Shown: positions 28,552 through 56,626 of the stretch, in pieces
Position numbering within the stretch: position 1 is the stretch's first letter
Layout: the number at the start of each line of letters is the position of its first letter
Virus record (IMG/VR): IMGVR_UViG_3300014204_000113
Coordinates: 32,001 to 96,000 of that record
Length of the DNA stretch: 64,000 nucleotides
DNA from: a virus
Lineage: Duplodnaviria; Caudoviricetes
Reading direction: 5' to 3' (one strand)
The notes under the pieces: model-generated
Told to the model about the DNA's origin: nothing
What the model saw: only the letters and a program-made list of their open reading frames with translations
Databases searched by the model: none
Position numbers and translations under genes: made by a program

Positions 28552-28578
28552 TAATAAAATGAAGGAGGACAAATTCAC

Positions 28579-36994: not shown

Positions 36995-37020
36995 TGCAAG
37001 TCTAAAGAATTAGACTTGCA
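36995..37020 (+). terminator. Perfect 11-bp hairpin immediately 3' of array A
   Basis: TGCAAGTCTAA-AGAA-TTAGACTTGCA. Confidence 0.6.
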
Positions 37021-37054
37021 CAGTTTCAAAGAATTAAAAAAGGAGAAATAAACA

Positions 37055-37992: not shown

Positions 37993-37993
37993 A

Positions 37994-38302: not shown

Positions 38303-38310
38303 GAGGATAG

Positions 38311-38769
38311 ATGGCAGATTTTGACAATAATAGATTTGCATCAAAAAATCAAGAATGGGAAACACCAACAGAACTTTTCAATATTTTAAATGAAGAATTT
38401 AATTTCAATTTTGATGTGTGTGCTGATGAAAACAATAAGAAAGTAAATGATTATTTTTCAGAACAAGACGATGCTTTGAGCAGAGAATGGAAGGGTATAT
38501 GTTGGATGAATCCTCCATATAAAGATTTAAAATTGTGGGTCAAGAAAGCCTATCTTGAAAGTAGACACAAAGATTGTGTTGTTGTTTGTCTTGTTCCCGC
38601 TAGAACTAATACTAATTGGTTCTATGAATATTGCATGAAAGGCGAAATAAGATTTATTAAAGGCAGACCTAAATTTAAAGGGTGTGAACACGGCTTGCCA
38701 CAACCACTTGCAATAATCGTATTTGGATTAGATTATCAAAATAATTATAAATCTGTAAAGTTGAAATAA
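38311..38769 (+). CDS. Phage DNA N6-adenine methyltransferase (Dam-like)
   Basis: WETP, DVCA, MNPPY, LVPARTNT, GRPKF. Confidence 0.9.
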   Translation: MADFDNNRFASKNQEWETPTELFNILNEEFNFNFDVCADENNKKVNDYFSEQDDALSREWKGICWMNPPYKDLKLWVKKAYLESRHKDCVVVCLVPARTNTNWFYEYCMKGEIRFIKGRPKFKGCEHGLPQPLAIIVFGLDYQNNYKSVKLK

Positions 38770-38771
38770 TT

Positions 38772-41700: not shown

Positions 41701-42257
41701 TTGTAGGTGATGCAGGAAAAGATATTCTTTGGCCAGAATTGAAGAAGCATAATTTAGTTAGAGACATGTTTCACCTAAGCAACATCTGCAAATGCTTCCC
41801 TGGGAAGAAAATCAAAACGCCAACTAAAAATCATATAAAAATTTGTTCTGAACATATTATAGATGAAATTAATAATTTAAAACCAATAATGATTCTTGCT
41901 TTTGGTAATACTAATGTTAAATTTTTCAAAGAACAAGATGGTGGAATTACCGCTTTGAATGGAACTACTGAATGGTCAGATAAATTCCAATGTTGGATTT
42001 CATTTTGTGTGCATCCAGCATCATGTCTCTATCAACCATCAAATAAAGAACTATTTGAGAAAGGAATAAAGAATTTCGCAGATAAAATAAATATGATTGG
42101 TGGTAATTGGTTAAGGAAAAATAAAGAACAGAAATCCAACAGAAAATGTCCTTATGGTGGTAAATTTGGGATAGATAACAACGAGTATGAGGAATGTGAA
42201 GTATGTAATATTTGGCTTGATTGCACTAAAATTGCTATGAATGATGATTTTAAATGA
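38772..42257 (+). CDS. dnaE: DNA polymerase III alpha subunit with C-terminal family-4 uracil-DNA glycosylase domain
   Basis: PHP (HLHTH, TDHG), RGSSGGS, PDIDVD, KLDVLG, YQEQ, YGFNLSHA; then CxxC, GEAPG, N..KC.P, HP of UDG-4. Confidence 0.93.
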   Translation: MAFVHLHTHTDRSLLDGAAKISDYIVEVVRHNQSHLAITDHGNCDCFLEFQKEALKQSITPIFGVEFYIVPDITKKEKYEKKYHITVLVQNKVGFTNVLKMLTIANLEGHYYRPQIDPSILLKNYEGLVFMTACVSSFINMEGGIELLLELNKKAPTYLELMPHNYPIQKEINLKKLELGKKYNIQFSASNDAHYAKPEHAQAQEMLLAIQKKAKWDDPKRWKFDFGGLYLKSEQEMEQAFIEQNCVPKEIWRPAMDNTMEIAKLCENFKIRKRKVSLPKVYGYEHRDETELMREIIESGLKERKIGDYDTYRNRIEEEFEIICKLNFQRYFLIVWELIDWCKKNGIGVGPCRGSSGGSLICYLMHITDIDPIKYGLIFARFISIERNDLPDIDVDYEDIKREEVKKHLRDCYGEYNVAGISTFLTLKGRGALRDVARVFDLPLREVDLVAKEIETKLDGDKLCGHTIEEACKKSEIVASFKKKYPETVQLAIDLEGQTKAVGQHAAGVVVSSDDLRKGERCNLCIRSGEIVVNWDKENAEQMGLMKLDVLGLTSLTIINSSKKFIKENYDIDIELDKLTLDDKEIYEEISKGNNVGLFQLNSHGLTGLCKEMGVKEFNDIVLATAIFRPGVLGSGMADEYIKRRKNKKEIKYIHPKLKKYTKDTLGIVLYQEQVMWVMYELAGLPWSICDKVRKVMGKSQGDAKFQKFKQQFIDGCKNNKTLSEKEADKVWDTLASFSKYGFNLSHATAYSMITYYCAYLKYYYPKEFLCACLTYGGEDKKAEYVNEARRLGLEVSLPKIDKSLADVWYPNKDSNIIYAPLTEIKGVGKTQAEKIIEQGSNKKVGFFTIMDQSVVPTNSTDELLNKVGFYKKTSLTQKELMKARQYLNFNPLTGMNRFSRLPKDFDYSDDDIIKCNLEGFEGNLIEIKKYGKKIECDKCELRREAKQIVFPSFGRYNIMAIGEAPGSRENEEGIGFVGDAGKDILWPELKKHNLVRDMFHLSNICKCFPGKKIKTPTKNHIKICSEHIIDEINNLKPIMILAFGNTNVKFFKEQDGGITALNGTTEWSDKFQCWISFCVHPASCLYQPSNKELFEKGIKNFADKINMIGGNWLRKNKEQKSNRKCPYGGKFGIDNNEYEECEVCNIWLDCTKIAMNDDFK

Positions 42258-42724
42258 ACATATACTTTGCAGCGCCGCTATTCACAATGGCAGAAAAGGA
42301 ATGGAATAAGAAACTTGCAACTGCCATAGAAGAAAAAGATAAAGACATCAACATCTTTCTACCACAAGAAAATTCTGTATTTGATGAATATGGCGAATTT
42401 CTTTCAAAAGAAACATTTGATTCTGATTTGAAGGCCATAAACAAATCCGATTTGGTATTGGCGATTCTTGATGGTTCTGATGCTGATTCTGGCACTTGCT
42501 ATGAATGTGGTTATGCTTATGCCAGTGGAGTAAAAATTCTAGGTATAAGAACAGATTTTAGGTCTGGTGAAGAAGAAGGTCTGAATGTAATGTTAAAACA
42601 CGGAGTTGACGATTTAATATTCTACCCTTGTAATAATAATCCACATTTGAACCCACCAGATATTGATTATTTAGCATGGATGATAATTGAAAGAATAAAT
42701 AGTTTGTTTGGAGAAAAGTTATGA
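42254..42724 (+). CDS. Nucleoside 2-deoxyribosyltransferase family
   Basis: IYFAAPLF, FLPQE, D..AI, DSGT.YECGYA. Confidence 0.85.
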   Translation: MNIYFAAPLFTMAEKEWNKKLATAIEEKDKDINIFLPQENSVFDEYGEFLSKETFDSDLKAINKSDLVLAILDGSDADSGTCYECGYAYASGVKILGIRTDFRSGEEEGLNVMLKHGVDDLIFYPCNNNPHLNPPDIDYLAWMIIERINSLFGEKL

Positions 42725-42963
42725 CCAAAGAGAAAGTACAAGAAGTTATAAAGAAGTATAGAAATTTATTTGATACTCTTAGAGAACACGACCATTCTTG
42801 GGAACATCTACATTGGATGACTTATCAAATGGAAGATATGTTATTTGAAGAAGATAACATGGAAAAAGTCATGAGATGGCTTGATTTTTTGCAAGGTGTA
42901 CTTTTTTGTAAAGGAGTTTATACAATCGAACAATTGAAAGAACACAATAGGAATAAGAAATGA
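42721..42963 (+). CDS. Hypothetical phage protein
   Basis: HLHWM..KVMRWL.FLQG motif. Confidence 0.6.
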   Translation: MTKEKVQEVIKKYRNLFDTLREHDHSWEHLHWMTYQMEDMLFEEDNMEKVMRWLDFLQGVLFCKGVYTIEQLKEHNRNKK

Positions 42964-43312
42964 CTTATGTGTAGAAATATTATAATTTTGATAAATGTCA
43001 TAGGATTTTTAATTACTTTTGTTTGGATATGTATATTAGGATATTATGATAAAGACGAATTTAATGGTAATCTTTTAGGCATAACATTAAACGCTTTTAT
43101 TTGTAGTTTAGCTTGGCCTATCTTTATGATTATGGGACTTATTGAATTTATTGACACAAAAAATGGTTAAAAATTATGACCTATGATACTGGTTTTCAAA
43201 CTTTATGTCCAGAATGTGGTTTTTTGGCTGATAATTATCAAATAAGATGTTTTGGAAGATGTAAAGATTGTCAAGATAAGAAAGACAAAGAAAACAAAAA
43301 GGAGAAATAAAA

Positions 43313-43756
43313 ATGGCTACAACTTACACAGATGCACCAATCGAAGAAATGGCAAACAAACTGATTGAAAAGTATGAAGAACTTGAAGATTGCTTTGATG
43401 CAAAAATAAAATTTCTTTTCAAAGAAAGCGAAAAGTCTTCCTACATCGGCAAATGCAGTAAGGCGACAGGTAAATGGAAATTCTTGACAGGCGACCTTGA
43501 TTATGTAGTAGAAGTGTGGGAACCCTTTTGGAATGTGGCTACAGACAAACAAAAAGAAGCCTTGTTATATCACGAACTAAGACATATTGAAAAGAAAATC
43601 AAAGAGAATGATGATGGCGAAGAAACGGTAACATGGAAGGTTCGGAAGCATCATGAAGAAATTTTTGCAGATGAGATAGAACATTTTGGTGCATGGAATG
43701 ACGGCCTCAGCAATCTTATGGGTGCTTTCTTGGCACAAAACATTGGGAAAAGATAA
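43313..43756 (+). CDS. Putative phage metallopeptidase
   Basis: ALLYHELRH...HHEEIF. Confidence 0.7.
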   Translation: MATTYTDAPIEEMANKLIEKYEELEDCFDAKIKFLFKESEKSSYIGKCSKATGKWKFLTGDLDYVVEVWEPFWNVATDKQKEALLYHELRHIEKKIKENDDGEETVTWKVRKHHEEIFADEIEHFGAWNDGLSNLMGAFLAQNIGKR

Positions 43757-43934
43757 TGAAAATTAGATGGGAAGTTGAAGATGGTTATGTTGGCAAATCA
43801 GGACCACATTATCTTGAAATAGACGATGATGAGTTGGAAGGTTTGTCAAAAGAAGAAACAGAAAGTTATATCAACGATTCTGTTCAAGAAGAATTTGAAC
43901 AGAATGTTTATCCTGTGTGGGAAATTGTGAAAGA

Positions 43935-44693
43935 ATGAAAGTTGGTTCATTGTTTTCCGGCATAGGTGGTCTCGAACTAGGCCTTGAATGGGCCGGGATG
44001 GAAGTAATTTGGCAAGTTGAATGGGATTCATTTGCCAGAAAAGTTTTGGAAAAACATTGGTTGGGAGTGCCTAAATATGAAGACATCAAAACAGTGGACT
44101 TTAAATCTTTGCCTAGGCCAGACCTCATTTGCGGAGGGTTCCCTTGTCAACCCGTGTCTTGTGCAGGGAAAAGACAAGGTGACAAAGATGAAAGGTGGCT
44201 CTGGCCGGAGTTCTATAGAGCCATTTGTGAAACTCAACCAAGATGGGTCTTGGTTGAGAATGTTCCCGGCTTACTCAATATTGACAATGGTAGATTATTC
44301 GGAAGAATACTTAAAGACTTGGCCAAAAGCGGGTATAATGCAGAATGGGATTTGCTCCCAGCAGCAGCCTTTGGTGCCCCACATTTACGGTATAGGCTCT
44401 TTCTTATTGCCTACCCCCAGAGTTTTCATGATATACAATGCTTTGAGGAAAAAGACAGAAGGGAACTGGAAAAACATTTTGAATCTGGAAGATGTGCTGC
44501 ACAGAAATGGGTTCAAGTTGCAACCAAATTTTGTGGAGTGGATGATGAAATTTCCAAAAGATTGGACAAAGACAGATTGAAATGCCTTGGAAATGCAGTT
44601 GTCCCTTCAGTTGTAGAATGGATTGGAAAAAGAATTATTGAATGTAATAATAAGATTGAAATTAATAAAGAAATAGAAATAATAAAGAAATAG
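43935..44693 (+). CDS. dcm: DNA cytosine-5 methyltransferase
   Basis: LFSGIGG, GFPCQ, ENV, PHLRYR, GNAV. Confidence 0.92.
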   Translation: MKVGSLFSGIGGLELGLEWAGMEVIWQVEWDSFARKVLEKHWLGVPKYEDIKTVDFKSLPRPDLICGGFPCQPVSCAGKRQGDKDERWLWPEFYRAICETQPRWVLVENVPGLLNIDNGRLFGRILKDLAKSGYNAEWDLLPAAAFGAPHLRYRLFLIAYPQSFHDIQCFEEKDRRELEKHFESGRCAAQKWVQVATKFCGVDDEISKRLDKDRLKCLGNAVVPSVVEWIGKRIIECNNKIEINKEIEIIKK

Positions 44694-44962
44694 AAGTAAT
44701 AAAGGAATAAATAATGTTTGACTACAACAATATGTTAAATCTTGGTAATGGCATATCGTCTATGGCTCAACAATATGATTTGTTGCATAAACTTGATAAA
44801 TGTTTTGAATTATTAAGTGGATGGCAACAACCAGTACATAGAAGATTAACAGGAAAAGAAGAACGTCAACGAAGGTTTGATGAAATTTTTATCAAAACAT
44901 TTATCAAAGATGTTGCTATGGCTTTAACTGGTGACAGAATAGAATTTATAAAGGAATAAATA

Positions 44963-45871
44963 ATGCCACTACATTTGTCAATGCGTCCTGATTCACTACA
45001 AGGCCTTCTTGGCAACGAACATATCAAAGAAAGTTTAAAGAATATTTTTGAGAGTGAAGATAAACCAAGAACTTATTTGCTTTATGGTAAAACCGGTACA
45101 GGCAAGACGAGCCTATCTCGCATCATAGCCAAAGAACTTGGTTGCAATATGGAAATGGATTTCCAAGAATTAAATATAGCAGAAGCAAGGGGGATAGATT
45201 CTGCTCGTGCCATTATGGAAGATATGAGATATTTTCCAAGAGGTGGACCAATCAAAGTTTATGTATTGGATGAAGTTCAAGGCAGCGTGTCAGGCTTCCA
45301 AGAGGCTTTGCTTAAACCGCTTGAAGATACACCATCTCATGTAGCTTTCATCCTAACGACTACTGATCCACAAAAATTAAAGGCCACTATTCGCAATCGT
45401 TGCAGCCAATTTGAACTAATGCCTTTGCCAACAGTCTTAATCAGAAAATTACTTAATAACGTCTTGGAAAAAGAAGGCGTAGAAACATTTCCAAAAGAAG
45501 CCATTAATATAATTTCTGAATTGAGCAATGGTTGTCCAAGAGACGCTTTGCAACTTCTTAACCAAGTCATAGATATACCAACAGATGAAGGTGTCATAGC
45601 ATTTCTTAAAGAAAAGAAAGCATCTGAGGAAGCAACTGAAAGTCTTGCCAAATTATTGTTGCAGAAAGCAGATTGGAAAGAAGTATCTAAGGCGTTAAAA
45701 GCGATGAAAGAGCAAGATTCAGAAAAGACAAGAAATGCCGTATTGGGATATTGTAGTAAGGTATTGTTAGATAATGGGAATAAGAGAGCAGGGATGATCA
45801 TGGATATTTTTGCATCTCCGATGTATTCATTTAATTTATTGGTATTGGCCAGCTATAAGGTGATATTGTGA
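44963..45871 (+). CDS. Clamp loader AAA+ subunit (DnaX-like)
   Basis: MRP, GKTGTGKT, LDEV, LLKPLE, IRNRC, GCPRDA. Confidence 0.9.
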   Translation: MPLHLSMRPDSLQGLLGNEHIKESLKNIFESEDKPRTYLLYGKTGTGKTSLSRIIAKELGCNMEMDFQELNIAEARGIDSARAIMEDMRYFPRGGPIKVYVLDEVQGSVSGFQEALLKPLEDTPSHVAFILTTTDPQKLKATIRNRCSQFELMPLPTVLIRKLLNNVLEKEGVETFPKEAINIISELSNGCPRDALQLLNQVIDIPTDEGVIAFLKEKKASEEATESLAKLLLQKADWKEVSKALKAMKEQDSEKTRNAVLGYCSKVLLDNGNKRAGMIMDIFASPMYSFNLLVLASYKVIL

Positions 45872-46350
45872 AGGATGTTCATTTTAGCTCTGAGTCTAAT
45901 GAATGGGAAACTCCAGAAAAACTTTTTGATCAATTGAATAAATTATATGGACCATTTGATTTAGACCCATGTGCTACTAATAAAAACTTTAAATGTGATA
46001 AATATTATACTAAAGAAGATGATGGATTGACCAAAACTTGGTTTGGTAAAGTATTTATGAATCCACCTTATGGGAATCAAATTAGTAAATGGATTGAAAA
46101 AGCATATAATGAAAGTTTAAGAGGTATTGAAATTGTTTGTTTAATACCAGCAAGAACTGACACTTCATATTTTCATAAATTTTGTCTTAGATACGGAACC
46201 ATAATTTTTTTAAAAGGAAGAATAAAGTTTAAAAATAGAAATTTTAAAATTAATTCAGCACCATTTCCTTCTATGATTGTGATTTTTCCAAAAATAGAAA
46301 TTAAAGAAAACCCAAAATTTTATCAACTAACTTTGAAAGATTTATCTTAA
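45868..46350 (+). CDS. Second phage DNA N6-adenine methyltransferase
   Basis: EWETP, LDPCA, MNPPY, LIPARTDT, SAPFPS. Confidence 0.9.
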   Translation: MKDVHFSSESNEWETPEKLFDQLNKLYGPFDLDPCATNKNFKCDKYYTKEDDGLTKTWFGKVFMNPPYGNQISKWIEKAYNESLRGIEIVCLIPARTDTSYFHKFCLRYGTIIFLKGRIKFKNRNFKINSAPFPSMIVIFPKIEIKENPKFYQLTLKDLS

Positions 46351-46355
46351 ATCAA

Positions 46356-46431
46356 GCGGGAATAGCTCAATTGGTAGAGCGCAGACCTTCCCGGTCTGAG
46401 GTTGAGTGTTCAAACCACTCTCCCTGCTCCA
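46356..46431 (+). tRNA. tRNA-Gly(TCC), atypical C37/G38
   Basis: GCGGGAA acceptor, CAGAC-CTTCCCG-GTCTG anticodon arm, T73-CCA. Confidence 0.85.
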
Positions 46432-46463
46432 ATTTCAAGAGTTTAAAAATTCTGCCTCTAGAG

Positions 46464-46514
46464 TACAAAAAATTGAACTTTTCACTTGCGCTCACCTTCC
46501 AGAAATTCTATAAT
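46464..46514 (+). promoter_or_regulatory. Phage-type promoter with conserved upstream element
   Basis: TACAAAAAATTGAACTT..TTGCGC-17-TATAAT. Confidence 0.7.
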
Positions 46515-46536
46515 ATAGTCAGGAGAAAGAAACACC

Positions 46537-46818
46537 TTGAAACTTCTAATCAAGCATTTCCCACAAATTCCCTGCAAGCCGTTTGAAGTCCCAGTAGAAA
46601 GCATTGAAGAAGCAGTCAGAATTATGGATATCTTGGCTGATTATGACTTGTTCCAATTCTACAATAAAATCAAACCAGACTATGCGAATATTACTGGTCT
46701 TTATATGTGGAATGATGAGGAAAAAGATTGGGAAGATTGGTATATTGAATTAGATGGTAATTACTTTGATGATCCACAGGAATATCTGGAATATTTAGAA
46801 AATAAAAAGGAGGAATAA
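46537..46818 (+). CDS. P22 gp17-like superinfection exclusion protein
   Basis: PQIPCKPF.V.V, LADYDLFQ..IKPDY.N..GL pattern. Confidence 0.7.
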   Translation: MKLLIKHFPQIPCKPFEVPVESIEEAVRIMDILADYDLFQFYNKIKPDYANITGLYMWNDEEKDWEDWYIELDGNYFDDPQEYLEYLENKKEE

Positions 46819-47045
46819 ACATGTTGGGCTCCTATTTCGACCCAGAGTTTTTCTGCCCTTCTTGTGATTGGGTTGGGGAATGGGAAGAAACTATTCAAGA
46901 AAATAAAGTTTTGAAAATTGGTATTTCTAAAATTAATAAGTGTCCACAATGTCTTACAGAAGTTAGAGAAATAAATCCAAAAGACAACAAAAGATACATA
47001 GAAGATATATAAAAACTTTAACTATATAACAGGAGAAATTAATTA

Positions 47046-47300
47046 ATGCCTAAATTTAAAGTGCGCCATTTGATGTTTGTTCCTTATTGGGTCTATACCG
47101 AAGTTGAAGCAAAAAGTGTAGATGATGCCATTGAAGAATGGAACGAATCAGAAGAGCCAGGAGAAATTGATTTTGACAATATGCCAGAAGATATTGATTT
47201 TGTTTATGACTTTGACGCGGCTGAAATAGAAATAAATGGTGAGTTTTGTCCTATCTATGAGTCTGAAGATGATGAAGATGGAATTGTGGGGAATGCGTGA
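47046..47300 (+). CDS. Acidic hypothetical protein
   Basis: EVEAKSVDDAIE motif; similar in type to N-terminus of 6500-6949. Confidence 0.55.
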   Translation: MPKFKVRHLMFVPYWVYTEVEAKSVDDAIEEWNESEEPGEIDFDNMPEDIDFVYDFDAAEIEINGEFCPIYESEDDEDGIVGNA

Positions 47301-47839
47301 TGGAAAACGATTATGCTAAAGATATTTTTATTGATGAAAACGATCTTGTAGGTGAGTGGTTGGATCACGGAAATAGAGTTTATCATTATAATAAACTTTC
47401 TGCCAACGCCAATGATGAACGCGATAGGGCTAAAGAAAAATTAAGTGTTGTTGAATCGGAACTACTACTCAAAGTGAAAAGTGATCCTGAAAAATTTATT
47501 CCAAATATTGCTATTAATAAGATAAGCGAAGCTACATATTCTGCTTGGATAAAAACACAACCGGAATATAAAGAAGCATTGGAAGATTATCTTAAGAAAA
47601 AACACAATAGCAGCATCTTGGGCGGGGCAGTAAACGTTTTTGATTCACATAGAAAATACGCCTTGAGCAACCTTGTCAATATGTTGCTTGCGGGATTTTT
47701 TTCTGTTCCAAGAGTGAAAGATGAATTCAAGAAAGAGGTTGAAGAAGATTGCAGAAAGGTTCAACTTGAAGGACTAAAAGATATGGGACCACAACTAAAA
47801 ACATTGAAAAGGAAGAAGAGAGATGCAGGAGCAAATTAA
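47297..47839 (+). CDS. UvsY-like recombination mediator
   Basis: D..ID..DL..EW helical protein upstream of SSB and RecA. Confidence 0.55.
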   Translation: MMENDYAKDIFIDENDLVGEWLDHGNRVYHYNKLSANANDERDRAKEKLSVVESELLLKVKSDPEKFIPNIAINKISEATYSAWIKTQPEYKEALEDYLKKKHNSSILGGAVNVFDSHRKYALSNLVNMLLAGFFSVPRVKDEFKKEVEEDCRKVQLEGLKDMGPQLKTLKRKKRDAGAN

Positions 47840-48329
47840 TTTAATAATTAATCAAATAGTTGATGTTGTTGAAAACATCGGCGAAAACGAAAAGTTGTGG
47901 ACTTCGCTCACCAAAATAATGAATAGAGCGAAGAGCAGTGCAATTGAAGTTGGTGCTACAAACAAAGAAGCAATCGCTTTTGCTTTAAGACTTGGTGAAC
48001 AATTTCAAATTGCTAAACCAACATAATTGATTATGAAACACATAGACTATTCAATTATGCAACAAAACGGAATGGTGGAATATCCAGATGGCGAATGTTC
48101 GCATGGTTATCCAGAAGACATAGATTGCCCAGATTGCATTGAAGACAAATATAATGACGAAATTATAGCCTTAGAGGAGGAATTAAACAATAGAGATAAA
48201 TTACTTTTAAAAATAAAGGATTTCTTATTTGGTTTATCTACTTCAACAAAAGCAATTGGTTTATGGGAAGAAATAGAAGATTTGCTTCCTGAAGACGAGA
48301 GGGAACTTTAAATTTTAAGGAGAAGAAGC

Positions 48330-49349
48330 ATGAGTTTATCAGAAGAACAAAGAAAGAAATTGTATGATGACCACTCTATGGACGGAGCACACCAACAATC
48401 TTACAACAGCAGGGATGCAGGTGGTTTCAAAGGTATCTTTGACAGGGAAAAATGTCAGAAGTATGGAGTCAATTTTTGGAAGCCACAAGCGGGTGAACAT
48501 TTAATTGACATTCTTCCATATCTGTCTGGTGAAAATGCGCCTTATGTGGATGGGGTAAAAGCTAAACCCGACTCTCCAGCTTATGTAGTGGACATCTATG
48601 TGCATCAACGGGTCAATGTAAACAATGACCAGTATATTTGTCTTACCAAGTCATATCGCAAGCCTTGTCCTATTTGTGAAGCGATGGAAAAAGGCGATTA
48701 TTCCGCGGAAGAATTGGATGAAATGCGTCCTAAACGCAGAACCATTTACGCCATTATGGATTTGGACGCTACTTCTAAAGGAATTCAAATTTGGGAATTG
48801 GCTCACTGGTTCATGGAAAAGAAATTGCAGTATCGGGCCAAAAGACCTCGCGGCGGCGGATATGTAAACTACTCTCATGCCAAAAACGGAAAGTCAATTG
48901 CTTTTTCTATTACTGGAAGTGGGTTGAAAAAAGCGTTTGAAGGCCACGACTTCATTGATAGGGACGGACCCATTGACGAAGAAATTCTAGCTAAAGTTCC
49001 TTGCCTAGATGACTTGCTTCATATCCCGGAATATGATGAAGTCAAGAGAGCGTTTGAAAGTATGCAAGAAGAAGAACCGGAAGAAAGACAAGAAAGAGAA
49101 CCAGAACCAGAAAGAACAATGAAGTATGCGCCAGAACCAGAACATGAATATCCTGGTGATAAGAAAGAAGTAAAAGAAGCTGCAACAAATGAAAGCAATA
49201 AATGTCCAATTGGGGTGACATTTGGGGCGGACTTTGACCAATACGAAGATTGTGATGAGTGCATTGTCCGCATTGAATGTAAACGAGAAAAAGAAGGACC
49301 GCCTAAAGATAATGTAACACCGATGCCGCGGCGCAGAAAGAAAGAATAA
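48330..49349 (+). CDS. Single-stranded DNA-binding protein (T4 gp32-like)
   Basis: FWKP..G, ILP, VH..C..PCPICE zinc motif, acidic region. Confidence 0.75.
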   Translation: MSLSEEQRKKLYDDHSMDGAHQQSYNSRDAGGFKGIFDREKCQKYGVNFWKPQAGEHLIDILPYLSGENAPYVDGVKAKPDSPAYVVDIYVHQRVNVNNDQYICLTKSYRKPCPICEAMEKGDYSAEELDEMRPKRRTIYAIMDLDATSKGIQIWELAHWFMEKKLQYRAKRPRGGGYVNYSHAKNGKSIAFSITGSGLKKAFEGHDFIDRDGPIDEEILAKVPCLDDLLHIPEYDEVKRAFESMQEEEPEERQEREPEPERTMKYAPEPEHEYPGDKKEVKEAATNESNKCPIGVTFGADFDQYEDCDECIVRIECKREKEGPPKDNVTPMPRRRKKE

Positions 49350-49373
49350 AGAGAAACTTTTTCTACTGACCTA

Positions 49374-49402
49374 TTGACAAATTTTGGGAAAAATTCTACA
49401 AT
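49374..49402 (+). promoter_or_regulatory. Promoter upstream of recA and downstream array cassette
   Basis: TTGACA-17-TACAAT. Confidence 0.65.
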
Positions 49403-49494
49403 AAAGGTAGTCAAAATTTCCATTTCCCATCCTCCTAAACCCCTAACCCTGTCCCATCTGAAAATGGTGGGGCAGGAACTTTATGGAGTTTATA

Positions 49495-50586
49495 ATGCCA
49501 CCAAGAAAGAAAACAGATGATGTTGTAAATCAAATCAAAGAAGTTGCAAATAGTCCTGTGAGAAAAGATGATGAACGAGTTGAGTTTTTGAACAGTGGTT
49601 CAACTTTATTAAATTTAGCTGCTTCACAAAAAGGTAAAGATGGTGGATGGGCGCGAGGGAGAGTAATTAATTTGGTTGGTGATTCTAGTTCTGGGAAAAG
49701 CGCCCTTGCATTAGAAGTTTGTGCTCAAAGTCTTTACAATATTAAAAATATAGAATCTAAAATATATCCAAAACCTCAAAAGGTTTCAATAGTTTACAAC
49801 AATGTTGAAGGCGTAATGGATTTTCCAATTTCACAAATGTTCGGTGAGAAATTTAATAATGAAATCGAATGGATACAAACACCAACTTGTGAAGGTTTTG
49901 GTAAAGATTATCAACAAAGAGTCCGTAATTTAAAATCTGGAGAATTTCTTTTATATATTTTAGATTCAATTGATGCTTTAACAACAGAAGCTTCTTCAGA
50001 AAGAATGGATCAACTTTTAACCGATAAAAAAGTTGGTGGTTCTTATGGTTTAGAAAAACCAAAATTTTTTTCAAGTGAATTTTTCAATCATTTATGTGGA
50101 ATAATGAAAGGAAAAGATTCAACACTAGTTTGTATCAGTCAAGTTAGACAAAATATTGGCATAATGTTTGGGGAAAAACTTACAAGAACTGGTGGGAAAG
50201 CTCTAGATTTTTATGCACATCAAGTTTGTTGGTTGGCAACCATTGAAAAAATGAAGAAAACTTTTCGTAATCAAGATAGAATTTATGGAGTAAAAATAAG
50301 AGCACGTTTTAAAAAAAATAAAACAGCAATACCTTATAGAGAATGTGATTTTAGTATTATTTTCAATTTTGGAATTGATGATGTCAATTCAATGTTAGAT
50401 TTTTGTTTTGGTCCAAAAAGCAAGGAAATGACTTGGAATGACCAAGAAATGAAACGAGGAGATTTAGTAGAATTAATTGACAACTCAAAGGAGGATTATT
50501 TACTGCTACAAGAACTGACTGAAAAAATTTGGCATGAAATAGAGGAGGGAATAAAACCACGAAGAAAAAACAGGTTTATTGATTGA
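49495..50586 (+). CDS. recA: RecA/UvsX-like recombinase
   Basis: GDSSSGKS, LDSIDAL, ISQVRQNIG, TGGKALDFYA, KNK. Confidence 0.9.
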   Translation: MPPRKKTDDVVNQIKEVANSPVRKDDERVEFLNSGSTLLNLAASQKGKDGGWARGRVINLVGDSSSGKSALALEVCAQSLYNIKNIESKIYPKPQKVSIVYNNVEGVMDFPISQMFGEKFNNEIEWIQTPTCEGFGKDYQQRVRNLKSGEFLLYILDSIDALTTEASSERMDQLLTDKKVGGSYGLEKPKFFSSEFFNHLCGIMKGKDSTLVCISQVRQNIGIMFGEKLTRTGGKALDFYAHQVCWLATIEKMKKTFRNQDRIYGVKIRARFKKNKTAIPYRECDFSIIFNFGIDDVNSMLDFCFGPKSKEMTWNDQEMKRGDLVELIDNSKEDYLLLQELTEKIWHEIEEGIKPRRKNRFID

Positions 50587-50709
50587 GGTTAGGTTTGGTT
50601 AGGTGGGGTCCGGTAAGGTGAGGTAAGGTGAGGTGTGATGAGGTTGGGTAAGGTGGGGTGAGGTAAGGTATGGTAAGGTACGGTATGGTAGGCTAGGGTG
50701 AGGTATGGA
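50587..50709 (+). repeat. GGT-NN pentamer array B (24 units), candidate guide RNA
   Basis: Starts at the base after recA TGA; NN = TA TT TA GG CC AA GA AA GA GT GA TG AA GG GA AA AT AA AC AT AG AG GA AT. Confidence 0.92.
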
Positions 50710-50711
50710 TT

Positions 50712-51026
50712 TTGCGACTTAAATTTGAAAGTTGTTTTGAAACTCAATTTCGGGAAGAACTTGAAAGTCGTGGATTCATAAAGAATAAAGATTTCATACA
50801 AGAATTTCCAGTTCGGTATCCAACCCGAATAATCGACTTTGTATTTTATGACAAAAAGGTTGGTGTTGAATTGGATGGTCCACATCACATTGGTAAGAAA
50901 AAGTATGTTGACAAGTGGAAAGATGAAAAAGCAATAAAACAAGGATGGGTTATTGTAAGATTTGATTTGGAGCAAATGAAAGATATCAAGAATTGTGTTG
51001 ATATGGCTTTAAGTTTGATTAAATGA
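50712..51026 (+). CDS. DUF559/Vsr-like endonuclease
   Basis: QEFPV..IIDF..VELDGPHH..D..KD..GW.IVRF. Confidence 0.8.
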   Translation: MRLKFESCFETQFREELESRGFIKNKDFIQEFPVRYPTRIIDFVFYDKKVGVELDGPHHIGKKKYVDKWKDEKAIKQGWVIVRFDLEQMKDIKNCVDMALSLIK

Positions 51027-51033
51027 ATTTTAT

Positions 51034-51096
51034 GGTGCGGTTGGGTCTGGTGTGGTACGGTTTGGTCAGGTATGGTCAGGTAGGGTAAGGTATGGG
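51034..51096 (+). repeat. GGT-NN pentamer array C (12 units)
   Basis: NN = GC TG CT GT AC TT CA AT CA AG AA AT; ends GGGTTTTT. Confidence 0.9.
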
Positions 51097-51122
51097 TTTT
51101 TCTATACTCAAATTAAAACAAG

Positions 51123-51653
51123 ATGGAGAAACAAATCATGGAGTTGACAAGAATTAAAGTAACAGTTCATGGAACAAAACCTCTTTTGGTGCATCGTTTT
51201 GCGGAAGAAGAAAGCGGCAAATCCAGGAAGAAAGCAACTGAGGATTCAAAAACGCAGGCAGAAAAGGCTCTTTACACAAATGCAGATGGACCTTATGCAC
51301 CATCTTCTTGGTTTGAAGGAGCTATGGTTAAAGCCGGTGTAAATTTCTCGTTGCGCGGCAAGAAAACTTACAAAGATTTGGTTAAAAGTGCGGTTGTGGT
51401 GACACCAGAAGAAATTCCTCTACGCAACGAATGGGAAGTAGATTCTCGTCCTGTTGTGATTAGCGGCAGGATTATGCGCCATCGTCCTAAATTTAAAGAA
51501 TGGTCGGCAGAATTCACAGTTGAAATTACAGACCCGCAATTACCAGCAAATGTCTTGCAAGACATTTTGAAAGATGCAGGACAATATTGTGGCGTGGGTG
51601 ACTACAGACCCAAGTTTGGTACTTTTGAAATTGTTGAATTTAAAGAAATTTAA
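51123..51653 (+). CDS. Small RAMP/Cas7-like protein 1 associated with GGT-NN arrays
   Basis: IKVTVHGTKPLLVH (beta1), PSSWFEGAM, R.RP, C-terminal glycine loop GVGDYRPKFGTF; paralogue of 55107-55661. Confidence 0.7.
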   Translation: MEKQIMELTRIKVTVHGTKPLLVHRFAEEESGKSRKKATEDSKTQAEKALYTNADGPYAPSSWFEGAMVKAGVNFSLRGKKTYKDLVKSAVVVTPEEIPLRNEWEVDSRPVVISGRIMRHRPKFKEWSAEFTVEITDPQLPANVLQDILKDAGQYCGVGDYRPKFGTFEIVEFKEI

Positions 51654-51660
51654 TTGATAA

Positions 51661-51702
51661 TTTATGTAGCAATAAAATTTAATTATTCTATTGCTACATA
51701 AA
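51661..51702. terminator. Inverted repeat after RAMP-like gene 1
   Basis: TTTATGTAGCAATA...TATTGCTACATAAA. Confidence 0.6.
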
Positions 51703-51720
51703 AACAAGGTGGGCAGATTA

Positions 51721-51987
51721 ATGTACAAAATATACAAATACCCGTTTGAAATCAAAGATGAATTCATCATTGAGATGCCTTATGATTCAAAGATTCTCAA
51801 CGCCTTTTGCCAAAATGATATTCCTTGTATGTGGGCATTAGTTAATCCACAAAGAAAATTACAAAAACGTAAATTCACCATTATAGGTACAGGGCATCCA
51901 ATTGAAGAAACTTACAATTTAGAACATATTTCAACTTTTTCACAATCTGATGGCAAATTCATCTGGCACCTTTTTGAGATAGTCTAA
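51721..51987 (+). CDS. Conserved hypothetical phage protein
   Basis: IYKY, WALV, GTGH, FIWHLFE. Confidence 0.65.
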   Translation: MYKIYKYPFEIKDEFIIEMPYDSKILNAFCQNDIPCMWALVNPQRKLQKRKFTIIGTGHPIEETYNLEHISTFSQSDGKFIWHLFEIV

Positions 51988-52394
51988 TGCCAGAAGATGA
52001 CAACAAGAAATTTGAAACCATAGCGATTTCAGCGGATTTGATAGCTGAACAATTATTAATCGGTTTTGGAACTATGGATGTTGATGCAGCAAGCAGTTTG
52101 CAATTGGGAATGGTCAAGGCTTTGGCTGTGATGTGGGCAGCTTGTTCCAATGGTGATTCCAATGAAATATTTCATAAAATAATGGAAGCGATGCCGCCAT
52201 TAGCAAATTTAAAACAAGCAGGGTGGGTGCAATAATATGGATAAATTAAAAAAGATTTTTTCAGAAATTGAACCGAAAAAGATTCCTCCAATCCCAAAAC
52301 ACATAAGAAAAATATTGGATGATTATTCTGATATGGTGGACAACGCATTAAAGAAAGGTGAAGAATATAGAAAAAATTCAAAGGACAGATTCTA

Positions 52395-52934
52395 ATGGAT
52401 TACGAATATTATTTTTCGATGTGCGACAAAGTAGCGGAAAAAAGCAAATGTTTCAGTCGTAAAATTGGTGTTCTTGTAATGACACCAGACCTTAGTATTA
52501 TAAATACAGCGTATAATGGCCCAGCACGAAAAGTAAGTCATTGTGATAGTCAAGAACGATTACAATGGCTTGAAAAACAATTGAAAGATACCCATGTTGG
52601 AGCGGTAGATTTATATTTATTGGACAATGGCTATGGAACAAAGTGTCCTCGTCAAATATTAAAATTTAAAAGTGGAGAAGGATTACATCTATGTCAGGCT
52701 GCACATGCGGAAAGAAATGCAATTGCAAACTGCGCTAGAGAAGGAATAAAAACAAAAAATAACTGGATGTTGATGAATTGTAGCCTTCCTTGTCAAGAAT
52801 GTTCCAAAGGAATTATTGGTGCAGGTTTTTCAAAAATAATATGTGTTGAAGGTGATGATTATGACAAAGGAAGCCGGTGGATTTTAGATCAAGCTGGAAT
52901 TGAAATAGTTCAAATAAAAAGACAAAAAATATAA
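52395..52934 (+). CDS. dCMP deaminase
   Basis: SKC.SRKIG, YNGP, HAERNA, PCQEC. Confidence 0.9.
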   Translation: MDYEYYFSMCDKVAEKSKCFSRKIGVLVMTPDLSIINTAYNGPARKVSHCDSQERLQWLEKQLKDTHVGAVDLYLLDNGYGTKCPRQILKFKSGEGLHLCQAAHAERNAIANCAREGIKTKNNWMLMNCSLPCQECSKGIIGAGFSKIICVEGDDYDKGSRWILDQAGIEIVQIKRQKI

Positions 52935-53261
52935 AAAGAGAGGAATAAACAAATGAATTTTACGCCTGAAGAAATTAAAGAATTGGAAGAGGCGGTTGGT
53001 GTTTATCTTGAAATGGCCAAAGTTGTCAAACCAGTAGCAGAAGATATCGTTGATAGTATTTTGCAGTATGGACCTGTTTTAAGAAAATTGTTTGATGCCA
53101 TCATAGATTATCAAAACGAAAGAACCATTGCGACTATCAAACAATTTAAAGAAGCCGGTCTTGAACTTCACAACGATCAGATTCTTGCTTTGGTTCTTGG
53201 AAATAAAATGAGTTTTACTGACGTGTTGAAAAATATCAATTTTCAAAAATAAGGAGGAATA

Positions 53262-53690
53262 ATGAACATTTCCAAAGGCAGCAAATGGTATAAAATATTC
53301 ATGTGGTCATTGAGTATTTGTGAATCGTTTACTGGAAAACATTTATCATACAAATACCAAAATGGAACAAACCTTTGCCATATGATGCGAACCATATTTG
53401 TTTACATACCGTTGATCTTTTTGTCCCAGTTGTTGGTGTTGGGCGCGGCATTTTCGGTTTTAATTTACGTGCCGTTTAAATGGTTCGGAGCATTAACTTG
53501 GCTTGGTTTGATATTGGCAATAGTAGTTGGGTTTATTCTATTGTTTTCTCTTTTCATGGGTGGAGACAAACTTAAAAACAAGTTTGAAAGATGGTGTGAT
53601 GAAAAAGAACCAAGTCTTGTTTGGGAATGGATCAAAGCAAAGAAACATAAAATTTGTCCGTTGATCCAGTGGGAGAACAATCATGAGTAA
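53262..53690 (+). CDS. Membrane protein
   Basis: Two TM segments, C-terminal KAKKHKICP. Confidence 0.6.
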   Translation: MNISKGSKWYKIFMWSLSICESFTGKHLSYKYQNGTNLCHMMRTIFVYIPLIFLSQLLVLGAAFSVLIYVPFKWFGALTWLGLILAIVVGFILLFSLFMGGDKLKNKFERWCDEKEPSLVWEWIKAKKHKICPLIQWENNHE

Positions 53691-53996
53691 ATGGATAATG
53701 CCTCTTCCGGCTGTCGGAATCGCTCTCTTTGTAATCCCTTTTATCTTCGCGATTCAATTTGCTGTCCATCAAGATTATAAAATTTATGAAGGTCCGTGCT
53801 CATTTGTTGAATGGTCAACAGACAGTTTTAGATTGAAAATGAAGGTTAAATTTGACAATGGCAAAGAAGGAGAAACCTCTGACAAGAAAGCCTATCTACT
53901 TTTGGAAAAAGGTAAAACCATGATTGGTGAGTTGAAAATTTCTGGCGATGTTGATTTGAAAGAGCCTAAAGAAGAAAAGATTAAAGGATAATTAAT

Positions 53997-54437
53997 ATGC
54001 TACCAAGAAGCGGTTATCAACCAGAAGAAGAACTTGATTTGACGAATCCACCACAAGGTGATTCTGGTATTGATTGGCAAGAAATATTTTCCCAAACAGA
54101 AAAGAGGTCTCCTAAATTTTTTCAGATGTTGGTCAAGGCGGCTGACATCCACAATCGAAAAAACGCAAATTACGCAGGTTTGGGAAACGACCCGTTTGCC
54201 AATTTCAGAGAAGCGGAAAAATACGCTTGCCCTTCTTGCGGTGAAAAAATTCCAGCATGGCTCGGAGTAGCCATACGTATTTCGGACAAAACCAGTAGAA
54301 TCAACAACTTGCTTGGTGGTATTCCAGATATGGTTGGAGAAAGCCTTCTTGACACCTACACAGATTTAGGGGTTTATTCCAAAATTTTCTGCATTCTTTA
54401 CGAAGAATGGGAAGAGAAAAAGAAGAAAAAACTCTAA
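53997..54437 (+). CDS. DUF1599/Nmad-like (MazG-fold) protein
   Basis: RKNANYA..DPFANF, RISDK.SR, DT..DL..Y. Confidence 0.6.
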   Translation: MLPRSGYQPEEELDLTNPPQGDSGIDWQEIFSQTEKRSPKFFQMLVKAADIHNRKNANYAGLGNDPFANFREAEKYACPSCGEKIPAWLGVAIRISDKTSRINNLLGGIPDMVGESLLDTYTDLGVYSKIFCILYEEWEEKKKKKL

Positions 54438-54444
54438 AAATTTC

Positions 54445-54472
54445 TTGACAACCCGATTCTAAGGTTTATAAT
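54445..54472 (+). promoter_or_regulatory. sigma70-type promoter
   Basis: TTGACA-16-TATAAT. Confidence 0.65.
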
Positions 54473-54503
54473 AGAGGCAAATCTTTGAAGGAGGAACCTG
54501 AAA

Positions 54504-54758
54504 ATGAAAACCCTATTCCTGATTTTGCTTCTATGTCTGCTTGCAAGTCCCGCATGGCCCAGAGACCACAACAATTATGTAATCAGAGACAAGAATTATA
54601 CTGTCAAAAATTATGTCAAAGATGGAAAAATTTATGATAAGAATTACCGTCTTGAAGGTTACATAAGTCCTAATGGCACTATCAGAGATAGAAATTATAA
54701 AACTGAAGGTTATCTTGACAGGAATAGAAGTGGCGGTCGCAAAGGGCGAAACAAATGA
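54504..54758 (+). CDS. Small secreted protein with three I.DKNY...GY repeats
   Basis: Signal peptide; IRDKNYTVKNYV / IYDKNYRLEGYI / IRDRNYKTEGYL. Confidence 0.7.
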   Translation: MKTLFLILLLCLLASPAWPRDHNNYVIRDKNYTVKNYVKDGKIYDKNYRLEGYISPNGTIRDRNYKTEGYLDRNRSGGRKGRNK

Positions 54759-54928
54759 GAATTTCTGCTTACATTGTCATAATCGGTTTTGTCCTTGTAC
54801 TGGGTGGATGGATTTGGTTGGTGAATGATGTAGAATCCAAAAAACCAAGAGGTTTGAGTCCAAATCAGCAAGTAATGCTTGATAATGAAATATCAATCAA
54901 GAAAAAGATTTATGGTGATAGGAGATAA
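54755..54928 (+). CDS. Small membrane protein (57 aa, not in ORF track)
   Basis: MRISAYIVIIGFVLVLGGWIWLV...; ATGA overlap with upstream gene. Confidence 0.55.
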   Translation: MRISAYIVIIGFVLVLGGWIWLVNDVESKKPRGLSPNQQVMLDNEISIKKKIYGDRR

Positions 54929-54983
54929 ATTATGATTAATCTTTACATTACCAAATGCCATTAGAAGAGAATAAAAAGTTTAC

Positions 54984-55061
54984 AGCATGGTTAGGCGAGT
55001 CCGGGCGATGCTAGGTAGGGCATGGCCAGGCGGGTCTAGGTGTGGCAGGTTGTGGCGAGGA
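54984..55061 (+). repeat. GGY-NN pentamer array D (15 units)
   Basis: NN = AT TA GA CG GA TA AG AT CA GG TA GT AG GT GA; ends GGATTT. Confidence 0.88.
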
Positions 55062-55106
55062 TTTAAAAAACGAAAAATCTAACACAAATAAAAGGAGGAA
55101 CAACAA

Positions 55107-55661
55107 ATGAACTTGGTACTGTGTAAATACAAAATTACTGGCTTATTTCCACTTTTAACCCACAGTCCTGCTGGAATGAGGCAAGCGGCCAATGCGCCAA
55201 AAGTCAAGAAGATTCCATCGCCAGAAGATGAAGCACAAGCTGGTTTGTATATTGATAATGATGGAAATTATTGCATCCCGTCTATTGCTTTTCGTTCAGC
55301 TTTATTGAATGGATTGAAAGGGAAAAAGATTGGCAAGGTGGGTGCAATTTCAGTGTTTCAAGCTGCGGTTTTTAACGTGGACGAATTGAGTCCATTAGTT
55401 GACCCTGAAACTGGGCGAGCATTAAGGGAATATACGATCGACACTCGTAGAGCTATCGTGCAAAGACAAGGAATTTTAAGAAACCGTCCAAGATTTGAAA
55501 AATGGGGATGTAATGTTTTTCTTCAAATCGACTTGGAAATAACCACACCTGAGCAAGTAGAAGAAGCATTGAATACGGCTGGTCAAATCATTGGCGTGGG
55601 TGATTTCCGTATTGAAAAGAGAGGAATGTTCGGTAAGTTTCAAGCCGAATTGGTTGAATAA
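55107..55661 (+). CDS. Small RAMP/Cas7-like protein 2 associated with GGC-NN arrays
   Basis: KITGLFPLLTH, IPSIAFRSAL, RNRPRF, glycine loop GVGDFRIEKRGMFGKF. Confidence 0.7.
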   Translation: MNLVLCKYKITGLFPLLTHSPAGMRQAANAPKVKKIPSPEDEAQAGLYIDNDGNYCIPSIAFRSALLNGLKGKKIGKVGAISVFQAAVFNVDELSPLVDPETGRALREYTIDTRRAIVQRQGILRNRPRFEKWGCNVFLQIDLEITTPEQVEEALNTAGQIIGVGDFRIEKRGMFGKFQAELVE

Positions 55662-55679
55662 AAGATTTTAAAGATTTGT

Positions 55680-55749
55680 GGCAAGGCGAGGCTGGGCTAG
55701 GCGGGGCTAGGCGGGGCTAGGCGGGGCTAGGTATGTCAAGGCGAGGTTT
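55680..55749 (+). repeat. GGC-NN pentamer array E (13-14 units)
   Basis: NN = AA GA TG TA GG TA GG TA GG TA AT AA GA; internal (GGCTAGGCGG)x3. Confidence 0.88.
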
Positions 55750-55789
55750 GAAAAAGAAATTAAGAACAAGAAATATAATGATTTTTCGC

Positions 55790-55842
55790 GGCGGGGTGGG
55801 GCGATGCCCGGCCCGGCATGGTAAGGCAAGTTAAGGCGAGGG
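55790..55842 (+). repeat. GGY-NN pentamer array F (10 units)
   Basis: NN = GG GG GA CC CC AT AA AA AA GA; ends GGGTTTT. Confidence 0.85.
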
Positions 55843-55870
55843 TTTTCAAACAAAACAAAGGAGAATAAAT

Positions 55871-56548
55871 ATGCTAATCAAAGCAGCAGAATTGATTGAG
55901 GATTTCAGTTTATATCCACGTTCCCAAGTGGACACAACACATGTAAGAAATATTGCAGAAGCAATGATGGCAGGAGAAAAATTTCCGTCTATCATCATTG
56001 ATGAACAAAATAGGATTATTGATGGCTTCCATCGGAAAAGAGCTACATTGAGGGTTTTTGGAGATGAGGCTGATATTGAAGTAGAAGTTCGACAATATGT
56101 TAACGATAAAGAAAGATTTCTTGATGCTTTGAGATATAATTCAAGACACGGTAAGGGAATAACTGGAGTTGAACAGACAGGAGCTATTTTGAAGGCTCAA
56201 GGTTTCAAGATTGACCCTAAATTTATCGCTTCTGCTTTGGGAATCAGCCAAGAAAGAGTCAAAGAAATCGTGCAATGTAAAGTCGGGAACATTCGCCAAG
56301 GTACGACTGCTCATGGAGACCCAGTTCCTCTAAAACGCTCTATGCAGCATTTTGCTGGGAAAGAAATGACTGTTGAGCAAGTTAAGGTGAATGATATGGC
56401 TCCCGGCACGCCACAATCTCTTCTTATCAATCAACTTATCGGATTTATTGAAAGCGGTAGTTTACAACTGGAAAATGAAAAGATTGTTAATGGACTCATC
56501 CATTTGAAGGAACTTTTAAATGGATTGGTTTTGGAAAAAGCGGTTTGA
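55871..56548 (+). CDS. ParB/Srx-like domain protein
   Basis: YPR, FP.I.ID, IIDGFHR, N.RHG. Confidence 0.8.
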   Translation: MLIKAAELIEDFSLYPRSQVDTTHVRNIAEAMMAGEKFPSIIIDEQNRIIDGFHRKRATLRVFGDEADIEVEVRQYVNDKERFLDALRYNSRHGKGITGVEQTGAILKAQGFKIDPKFIASALGISQERVKEIVQCKVGNIRQGTTAHGDPVPLKRSMQHFAGKEMTVEQVKVNDMAPGTPQSLLINQLIGFIESGSLQLENEKIVNGLIHLKELLNGLVLEKAV

Positions 56549-56563
56549 AATAATTAAAGATTT

Positions 56564-56626
56564 GGCTCGGCTTGGTTGGGCGCGGCTAGGCTATGCGCGG
56601 CTTTGCGTGGCAGGGCAAGGCGTGGA
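56564..56626 (+). repeat. GGC-NN pentamer array G (12 units)
   Basis: NN = TC TT TG GC TA TA GC TT GT AG AA GT; ends GGATTT. Confidence 0.88.

Follow-up and report, generated by a model that had tools for sequence, protein, structure and literature searches.

A VIPR cassette with a Vsr/DUF559-like nuclease gene behind a phage recA gene: a possible RNA-guided exclusion or homing-like element

The closest described systems and the cassette behind recA

VIPR systems were described only in 2026, so far as silencing systems in phages and with nuclease accessories in host-borne types. The current study deals with a VIPR cassette that contains a small DUF559/Vsr-like nuclease gene and directly follows the recA gene of an uncultured tailed phage (Duplodnaviria; Caudoviricetes; IMG/VR record IMGVR_UViG_3300014204_000113). 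The analysis is based on a stretch of 64,000 nucleotides, positions 32,001 to 96,000 of that record, which is referred to as the window and from whose first letter all positions are counted. One of the guide-RNA arrays of the cassette matches the recA gene of related phages that lack it, and the nuclease gene accompanies the vipr gene throughout its clade. We tentatively prefer the reading that the nuclease acts on rival DNA held by the Vipr filament, turning silencing into a nick or break with exclusion or homing-like conversion as the result, a reading that falls a little short of being probable.

The Vipr protein, a minimal RAMP, forms polymers on vrRNAs that consist of GGY-NN (YNNGG) repeats. 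According to the text of the preprint, the NN dinucleotides pair with DNA and one target base is skipped per unit (the NNx or NN-skip-1 rule), natural targets are mostly coding sequence with the skip at the wobble position, and the threshold for a natural target is an NN match of at least 80% (bioRxiv 10.64898/2026.04.26.720920). In the described systems, vrRNAs are expressed, processed to about 100 nucleotides (nt) and co-purify with Vipr, and they have an invariant structured 3' tail. VIPR as described there is phage-borne and directed at competing elements, usually with one accessory gene (vap) per locus, defined as a second protein gene in conserved synteny with vipr across a Vipr clade. 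The characterised phage VIPR acts by repression, and its Vap1 enhances protection and is required in natural infection; nuclease accessories are reported in that text for host-borne types only, and the fold shown is HNH (same preprint). Exemplars of type II are Escherichia phage SUSP1 and a Pseudomonas fulva prophage (bioRxiv 10.64898/2026.04.26.720920, 10.64898/2026.04.26.720927, 10.64898/2026.10.15.759431).

With respect to the nuclease, the closest described relatives are homing endonucleases. I-Bth0305I, an EDxHD/Vsr-like homing endonuclease from a recA intron of Bacillus phage 0305phi8-36, has 266 amino acids (aa), of which residues 167-266 were crystallised as the catalytic domain, and its N-terminal region carries NUMOD and helix-turn-helix (HTH) motifs (PMC3239194; PDB 3r3p). 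The predicted model of the cassette nuclease resembles this Vsr-like catalytic fold by TM-score (0.61, with a weak E value), and the two enzymes share the phage-borne state and the link to recA; a selfish logic in which the allele without the element gets cut would be common to both and is only proposed here. Unlike the intron-encoded enzyme, the open reading frame (ORF) of the cassette is a free-standing 104-aa core between guide-RNA genes, and recA is uninterrupted. As described for free-standing homing endonuclease genes of T4-like phages and for nuclease genes at boundaries of genetic exchange (PMC10055350), the element is inserted between conserved genes, its target lies in the neighbouring gene of relatives, its own allele is resistant, and a divergent island with recombination breakpoints lies beside it. 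In contrast to these, the demonstrable specificity resides here in an RNA guide and not in the protein, and homing is put forward as a candidate outcome. The TnpB and IscB (OMEGA) proteins of IS200/605 elements unite guide binding and cutting in one protein, with a contiguous guide and in a transposon setting. The cassette resembles them in the concept of an RNA-guided nuclease that serves the spread or retention of its encoding element; unlike there, recognition by the Vipr filament and cutting by the Vsr-like protein would be divided between two proteins, and the code is gapped.

The original prediction, which regarded the guide/RAMP module as an RNA-guided system, was borne out in the form of VIPR, a system of Vipr protein and vrRNAs that is already published and not new. 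A profile of the window's Vipr clade matches PDB 36pp_D ('SUSP1 Vipr protein') over the full length (E value of 9.9e-27), and the vipr1 product has 30% identity to SUSP1 Vipr over 96% of the query (BLASTP); the corresponding tblastn match in phiSUSP1 lies at 28501-29061 and has long intergenic regions on either side, as in the VIPR preprint. The GGT-NN arrays B and C lie on the sense strand in a strict 5-nt register, and sister cassettes keep the GGT and change the NN. Such arrays exceed chance expectation by far; seven are located in the window, all on the + strand, and 13 in the 188-kb genome, 12 of them on the + strand. The genome harbours three paralogous vipr (RAMP) genes and a single DUF559 gene. 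G-quadruplexes and TRAP-like or CsrA-like protein-binding repeats had been considered for the GGT-NN tracts and were dropped given the VIPR papers and the Vipr match. PADLOC gave no hits, and NCBIfam only a weak generic DUF559 match. Since the guide/RAMP system had already been published, most of the claimed novelty falls away; the pairing with a nuclease beside a resistant allele is a new variant. DUF559, Vsr, recA and homing are not mentioned in the text of the three VIPR preprints (a related locus could be within the locus tables of 720920), and the putatively new part is the Vsr/DUF559 pairing, a fold not reported for VIPR in these texts.

Like type II VIPR, the cassette combines a Vipr RAMP protein with GGY-NN arrays that flank vipr and an NN-skip-1 code on coding DNA with the wobble position skipped; it is phage-borne, directed at competing mobile elements and equipped with one small accessory gene per locus. 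Unlike type II, the accessory gene encodes a Vsr/DUF559 nuclease core here and a DNA-binding Vap1 there, and the 3' end shared by the GGT-type arrays appears as a short GGTATGGRTTT handle, compared with the pseudoknot tail of type II. The guide has 19-24 units compared with the published 9-16 (array B consists of 24 contiguous units, 19 of which match the target). The arrays occupy 13 genome sites, array B adjoins the resistant allele of the gene it targets, and the target is the core gene recA of sister phages and not a satellite or prophage regulator. VIPR types III-V likewise unite Vipr and vrRNA with a predicted DNA nuclease, which the preprint authors read as target destruction; those systems are reported to be host-borne, enriched in defence islands and of the HNH type, whereas the present one belongs to a phage replication module in a 188-kb genome and has a Vsr/PD-(D/E)XK nuclease.

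The window carries an AT-rich phage replication module (33% GC) with genes for a gp32-like single-stranded DNA-binding protein, a RecA/UvsX-like recombinase, a sliding clamp and a dCMP deaminase. Every element of the predicted layout was recovered in place on the + strand, in the order recA stop, array B, DUF559/Vsr-like ORF, array C, vipr1 (RAMP) and hairpin. The phage's own recA allele (49483-50586; Pfam RecA with an E value of 1.2e-26, PHROG UvsX-like with 1.8e-35) has its TGA stop at 50584-50586 and is followed without a spacer by array B, whose first GGT begins at base 50587. Array B (50587-50709), a vrRNA gene of 24 GGT-NN units in strict 5-nt register, includes three degenerate triplets (GAT, GCT and the terminal GGA). 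It is followed by the nuclease ORF (50712-51026; 104 aa, TTG start, PD-(D/E)XK type according to Pfam DUF559), the vrRNA gene array C (51034-51096; 12 GGT-NN units in register plus a GGG-ttttt tail) and vipr1 (51138-51653; 171 aa, SUSP1 Vipr profile match, phrog_4652). The reading frame of vipr1 is open from 51123, and its start was set at the ATG at 51138 because the sister contig L031 has a GTG there and lacks an upstream ATG. An inverted repeat with a 14-bp stem closes the cassette (51661-51702; folding free energy dG of -16.6 kcal/mol, z of -4.3 versus shuffles), and L031 has a hairpin with another stem sequence at the equivalent place (dG of -25.5, z of -6.3). No U-run follows the hairpin at 51661-51702, which is probably a transcript end or stabiliser. 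A promoter-like site, TTGACA-17-TACAAT (49374-49402, + strand), agrees with the consensus at 11 of 12 positions and is a consensus match only. Since it is the sole strong + strand site of this kind ahead of the cassette and sits upstream of recA, with none comparable between recA and vipr1, the genes recA, DUF559 and vipr1 and arrays B and C are probably contained in one transcript.

Array B and the recA genes of sister phages

The claim that array B points at a non-self recA allele next to the insertion point was confirmed by relatives without the cassette. A pattern of 11 array B units, in which the NN were fixed and any third base was allowed, occurs in IMG/VR in two contigs only, each time within recA; both sites are located in the C-terminal region, homologous to 50401-50472 of the window, keep the reading frame and place the skipped base on the wobble position. 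Compared with the recA of two relatives, array B agrees at 37 of 38 bases over units 1-19 and at 39 of 48 (81%) over all 24 units, and the best of 30 shuffled-unit controls over all DNA fetched reached 33/48. By the preprint's rule of at least 80%, the recA of the targeted relatives is a natural target and the phage's own allele is not, its homologous site (50401-50472, + strand) being mismatched with 26 of 48 guide bases. Against the window alone, the full-length array scored 27/48 versus a null of 28.6, without significance; its likeness to the own recA is visible at the protein level only, and the decisive evidence comes from the relatives. The guide is of mRNA sense and therefore unable to pair with recA mRNA, which fits DNA targeting. 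Array B is a predicted vrRNA gene that spells the sense strand of the C-terminal region of a rival recA, to which the own recA is mismatched.

The RecA proteins of the targeted phages have 63% identity to the window RecA. The recA loci of relatives were found by an alignment-based IMG/VR scan; a scan with a single RecA protein returned nothing. The targeted relatives and 14 further recA loci, i.e., 16 in all, have no array, vipr or DUF559 gene near recA.

The last units of array B (..GGT-ga GGT-at GGA-tttt) form a 3' handle that is common to the sister cassette and to other GGT-type arrays, whose shared 3' end is a short GGT-at-GGR-ttt; these units are probably not part of the guide. The handle also provides the ribosome-binding site, represented by the last GGT/GGAG units, and the start region of the nuclease ORF, whose first codon, a TTG in the window and an ATG in the L032 group, is placed inside the conserved handle. 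At the position of array B, L031 has two arrays of 14 and 17 units that are separated by a 32-base spacer. Its B2 array decodes to the N-terminal LAASQKG..GGWARG region of recA (27/34 versus a null maximum of 23), and L031 B1, L032 B and L041 B map to homologous positions in recA with scores that are borderline versus the null. For array C, nothing above shuffled controls was found in the window, the 188-kb genome and 40 fetched loci, and two IMG/VR pattern scans (10 and 9 units) gave no match. No target emerged either for the arrays that separate nuclease gene and vipr in L031, L032, L033, L034, L041 and L042.

A comparison of the window with the sister phages L005 and L031 revealed a mosaic structure around recA. 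The window and L005 have 92-100% identity over most of the gp32 gene (48044-49143). Just ahead of the break, a stretch of 90 bases (49480-49570) contains only three differences, and the similarity is lost at about 49575, roughly 90 bases inside recA. The divergent island (49575-50690, about 1.1 kb, 52-75% nucleotide identity) comprises recA from about codon 30 to the stop together with array B; its right edge is the array handle, and its flanks in L005 and L031 have 86-100% identity. The recA of L005 is of the L031 type (92% nucleotide identity). Identity between the window and L031 amounts to 54% for the recA C terminus, 89% for DUF559, 97% for Vipr and 86-97% at the nucleotide level for the genes downstream of the cassette, and the upstream arrays of the two phages carry different NN. 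This part of recA and array B thus represent an exchanged island between closely related flanks. The left break of the island is located about 40 bases upstream of the site decoded by the L031 B2 guide. The mosaic fits the expectation from guided cutting with co-conversion, and it fits equally well ordinary recombination and an escape by allele replacement, which also leaves such an island because guide and resistant allele must stay linked.

The nuclease gene and its pairing with vipr

The 104-aa ORF matches Pfam DUF559 (PF04480) over residues 39-99 with 33.4 bits (cut-off of 20.6, E value of 4.5e-8), and its homologues are also assigned to PF04480 by precomputed Pfam annotation. They have 104-107 aa; the DUF559 domain fills the ORF of the window, and an N-terminal NUMOD/HTH region is lacking. 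In agreement with the original prediction of a small nuclease without an evident DNA-binding domain, the protein appears to be a catalytic core alone that has no DNA-recognition domain of its own. Residues D42, E53, D55, H58, H59, K68, Q77 and R83 are invariant in five nuclease sequences with identities down to 55%, and the ELDGPHH stretch aligns with EADGGQH of 3hrl, a 104-aa DUF559 structure matched by sequence. The predicted model (AlphaFold2, pLDDT of 69.8) has a TM-score of 0.61 with 3r3p and of 0.55 with 3hrl, with weak Foldseek E values of 0.14-0.96. The nuclease genes of the window and L031 differ by 19 synonymous and 11 conservative non-synonymous codons; judged by its sequence, the ORF is an intact gene under purifying selection. 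A homologue was found in none of 50,697 GenBank phage records, and among 5.8 billion proteins, queried first with the sequence itself and afterwards with a profile, only three close members were found, followed by bacterial DUF559 proteins of 31-38% identity; one ordinary bacterial relative of this identity class adjoins smpB. A DUF559 remnant had been suspected upstream of the array at genome position 116344 due to a similar leader, and the upstream gene proved to be an unrelated 339-aa ORF.

The order nuclease, array(s), vipr is found in eight of eight contigs (the window, L031, L032, L033, L034, L039, L041 and L042), with a nuclease identity to the window of 55-89% across the other seven, and recA is located upstream in all four of the eight contigs that extend that far. 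The array between nuclease and vipr has decayed in L039, where both genes are still adjacent. In a Vipr-led search, the nuclease gene immediately precedes vipr for each of the three closest homologues (71-74% identity). Within the eight contigs, the nuclease of this clade was never seen apart from vipr, and cases in which it alone was sporadically present or absent were not observed. The expected association of nuclease and RAMP gene elsewhere thus holds for the close clade and fails for all 13 loci of distant Vipr homologues. Because the DUF559 gene is paired with vipr in all close contigs and absent from the distant loci, it is by the published definition a putative vap that is specific to the recA-linked clade, and each Vipr clade appears to have its own accessory gene. 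SUSP1 Vap1 is unrelated in sequence to the DUF559 nuclease. A precedent exists in the same genome, in which a ParB-like gene lies beside vipr2; it is likewise kept after the vipr2 homologue and arrays in the IMG/VR contig L030 (identity of 38% for ParB-like and of 52% for Vipr) and is probably the accessory gene of the vipr2 clade. A co-fold of Vipr1 (17-row alignment) and the nuclease (5-row alignment), in which the RNA of the Vipr filament was not included, scored 0.00 versus a mark of 0.32, a value that argues neither for binding nor against it.

The second cassette of the window (54989-56626) consists of array D, vipr2, arrays E and F, the ParB-like 225-aa gene and array G. The arrays of the window (36927-56626) and of the remaining genome fall into triplet classes: A, B, C and several arrays beyond the window are of the GGT type and end with GGT-at-GGR-ttt, the GGC-rich arrays D-G are grouped around vipr2, and TGT is the triplet of one array next to the third vipr paralogue, which suggests that each Vipr paralogue may read its own repeat triplet. 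Genes for Sak4-like ATPases and UvsW-like helicases and a portal gene are among the neighbours at the 13 distant Vipr loci. Distant Vipr cassettes of other phages (IMG/VR contigs L023, L027, L028 and L022) also sit between core genes (Sak4-like AAA_24 ATPase, UvsW-like helicases, lambda-type portal), and VIPR cassettes may in general tend to settle next to an essential gene.

Downstream of the recA cassette, a DUF7352 gene (51712-51987) is present in the window and in L031, which has an extra 57-aa ORF between hairpin and DUF7352 gene; the latter is altogether absent from the recA-cassette relatives L001 and L006. The 5' leader of recA (49455-49473) contains a small hairpin with the stem CCCATC / GGTGGG and the 7-nt loop TGAAAAT. 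The close relative L005 carries this loop in exactly inverted form (ATTTTCA), which resembles a hairpin-loop flip.

Possible roles of the nuclease

In the reading that we prefer, the Vipr-vrRNA filament would bind the recA DNA of a rival during co-infection, and the nuclease, which lacks its own DNA-recognition domain, would act on the DNA that is distorted or exposed by the filament. Reversible silencing would thereby be turned into a nick or break. The rival would be excluded, or the break would be repaired from the cassette-bearing genome, whereby the 3' part of the rival recA and the guides would be converted in a homing-like spread. The guide would be kept beside the resistant allele, and weapon and immunity would stay in linkage. 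A more far-reaching version appears doubtful, namely, that the cassette is an RNA-programmed homing/exclusion element whose filament marks the recA of sister phages, whose specificity-less nuclease cuts there and whose resistant recA 3' part, guides and cassette are copied by repair.

Several observations weigh against nuclease action at the filament. The pairing of the two genes suggests a cut in guide-marked rival DNA and is no proof of it. The text on published phage-borne VIPR describes silencing, with nuclease accessories in host-borne types only (bioRxiv 10.64898/2026.04.26.720920). The nuclease model is only moderate (pLDDT of 70) and its fold matches have weak E values, and the absence of a DNA-binding domain is not special because bacteria commonly have small DUF559 proteins that stand alone (3hrl also has 104 aa). 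A DUF559 gene is missing from the 13 loci of Vipr homologues with 29-52% identity (nine in IMG/VR, four in assemblies) and, within the same genome, from the two other Vipr paralogues and their cassettes and from ten other arrays; VIPR can hence function without the nuclease. All eight cassettes belong to one clade with only about three independent sub-lineages, and the adjacency of nuclease and vipr could reflect inheritance by descent. The recA island is explicable by ordinary recombination as well.

The same data have to be weighed for the nuclease being an autonomous, protein-guided, free-standing Vsr-like homing endonuclease with its own specificity near recA, situated in a variable spot that VIPR merely shares. 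Enzymes of this kind exist, with the prototype I-Bth0305I in a phage recA gene (PMC3239194), and 3r3p is the best fold match by TM-score; moreover, the region behind recA varies between relatives, and the entire cassette is absent from the 16 recA loci. An autonomous enzyme is nevertheless quite unlikely, given that the ORF encodes only the 104-aa core without the N-terminal NUMOD/HTH modules described for known family members (PMC3239194), lies between two vrRNA arrays and starts within the conserved array handle, and occurs without vipr in none of the eight contigs, with no sporadic presence or absence of its own. The invariance of the Vsr/DUF559 catalytic set (D42, E53, D55, H58/H59) at 55% identity would be unexpected for a purely structural protein, and SUSP1 Vap1 shares no sequence with it. 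Both points speak against a non-cutting or weakly cutting DNA-binding helper that, like SUSP1 Vap1, strengthens or stabilises the silencing of the rival recA, or against an unrelated housekeeping role. This explanation is unlikely, albeit in line with the repression by characterised phage VIPR, with the enhancing effect of Vap1 and its need in natural infection, and with the nuclease-free state of the other VIPR of this genome.

A role in RNA processing would suit the presumed transcript structure, in which the arrays are embedded in mRNA and need release: the DUF559 protein would cut the recA-array-ORF-array-vipr transcript at the conserved array ends and set the vrRNAs free, a Cas6-like role for a Vsr/RAP-like fold. 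Vsr-like RAP-domain proteins act on mitochondrial RNA (PMC11879112), and mitoribosome-associated chains are among the fold matches of the nuclease model. Ten other arrays of the genome and all distant VIPR loci, however, go without such an enzyme, the SUSP1 vrRNAs were detected in Escherichia coli with a plasmid-expressed SUSP1 VIPR locus (bioRxiv 10.64898/2026.04.26.720920), and the known activities of the family are on DNA, which makes RNA processing very improbable.

Should the nuclease prove to be autonomous or inert, no more than a further VIPR cassette would be present. If the more far-reaching version of an RNA-programmed homing/exclusion element is true, the cassette would be a two-protein, gapped-code counterpart of a free-standing homing endonuclease and the first VIPR of a phage to destroy its target instead of silencing it. 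A constant coupling of Vipr to a minimal Vsr-like nuclease in a phage clade would show that phages too have joined a gapped RNA code to DNA cutting. The preferred reading offers an explanation for the sharply divergent recA island between otherwise near-identical phages. The cassette would also illustrate how, in nature, a guide stays linked to a resistant allele of the gene it targets, and it would provide a simple two-gene test bed for the question of whether a Vipr filament can aim a specificity-less nuclease core.

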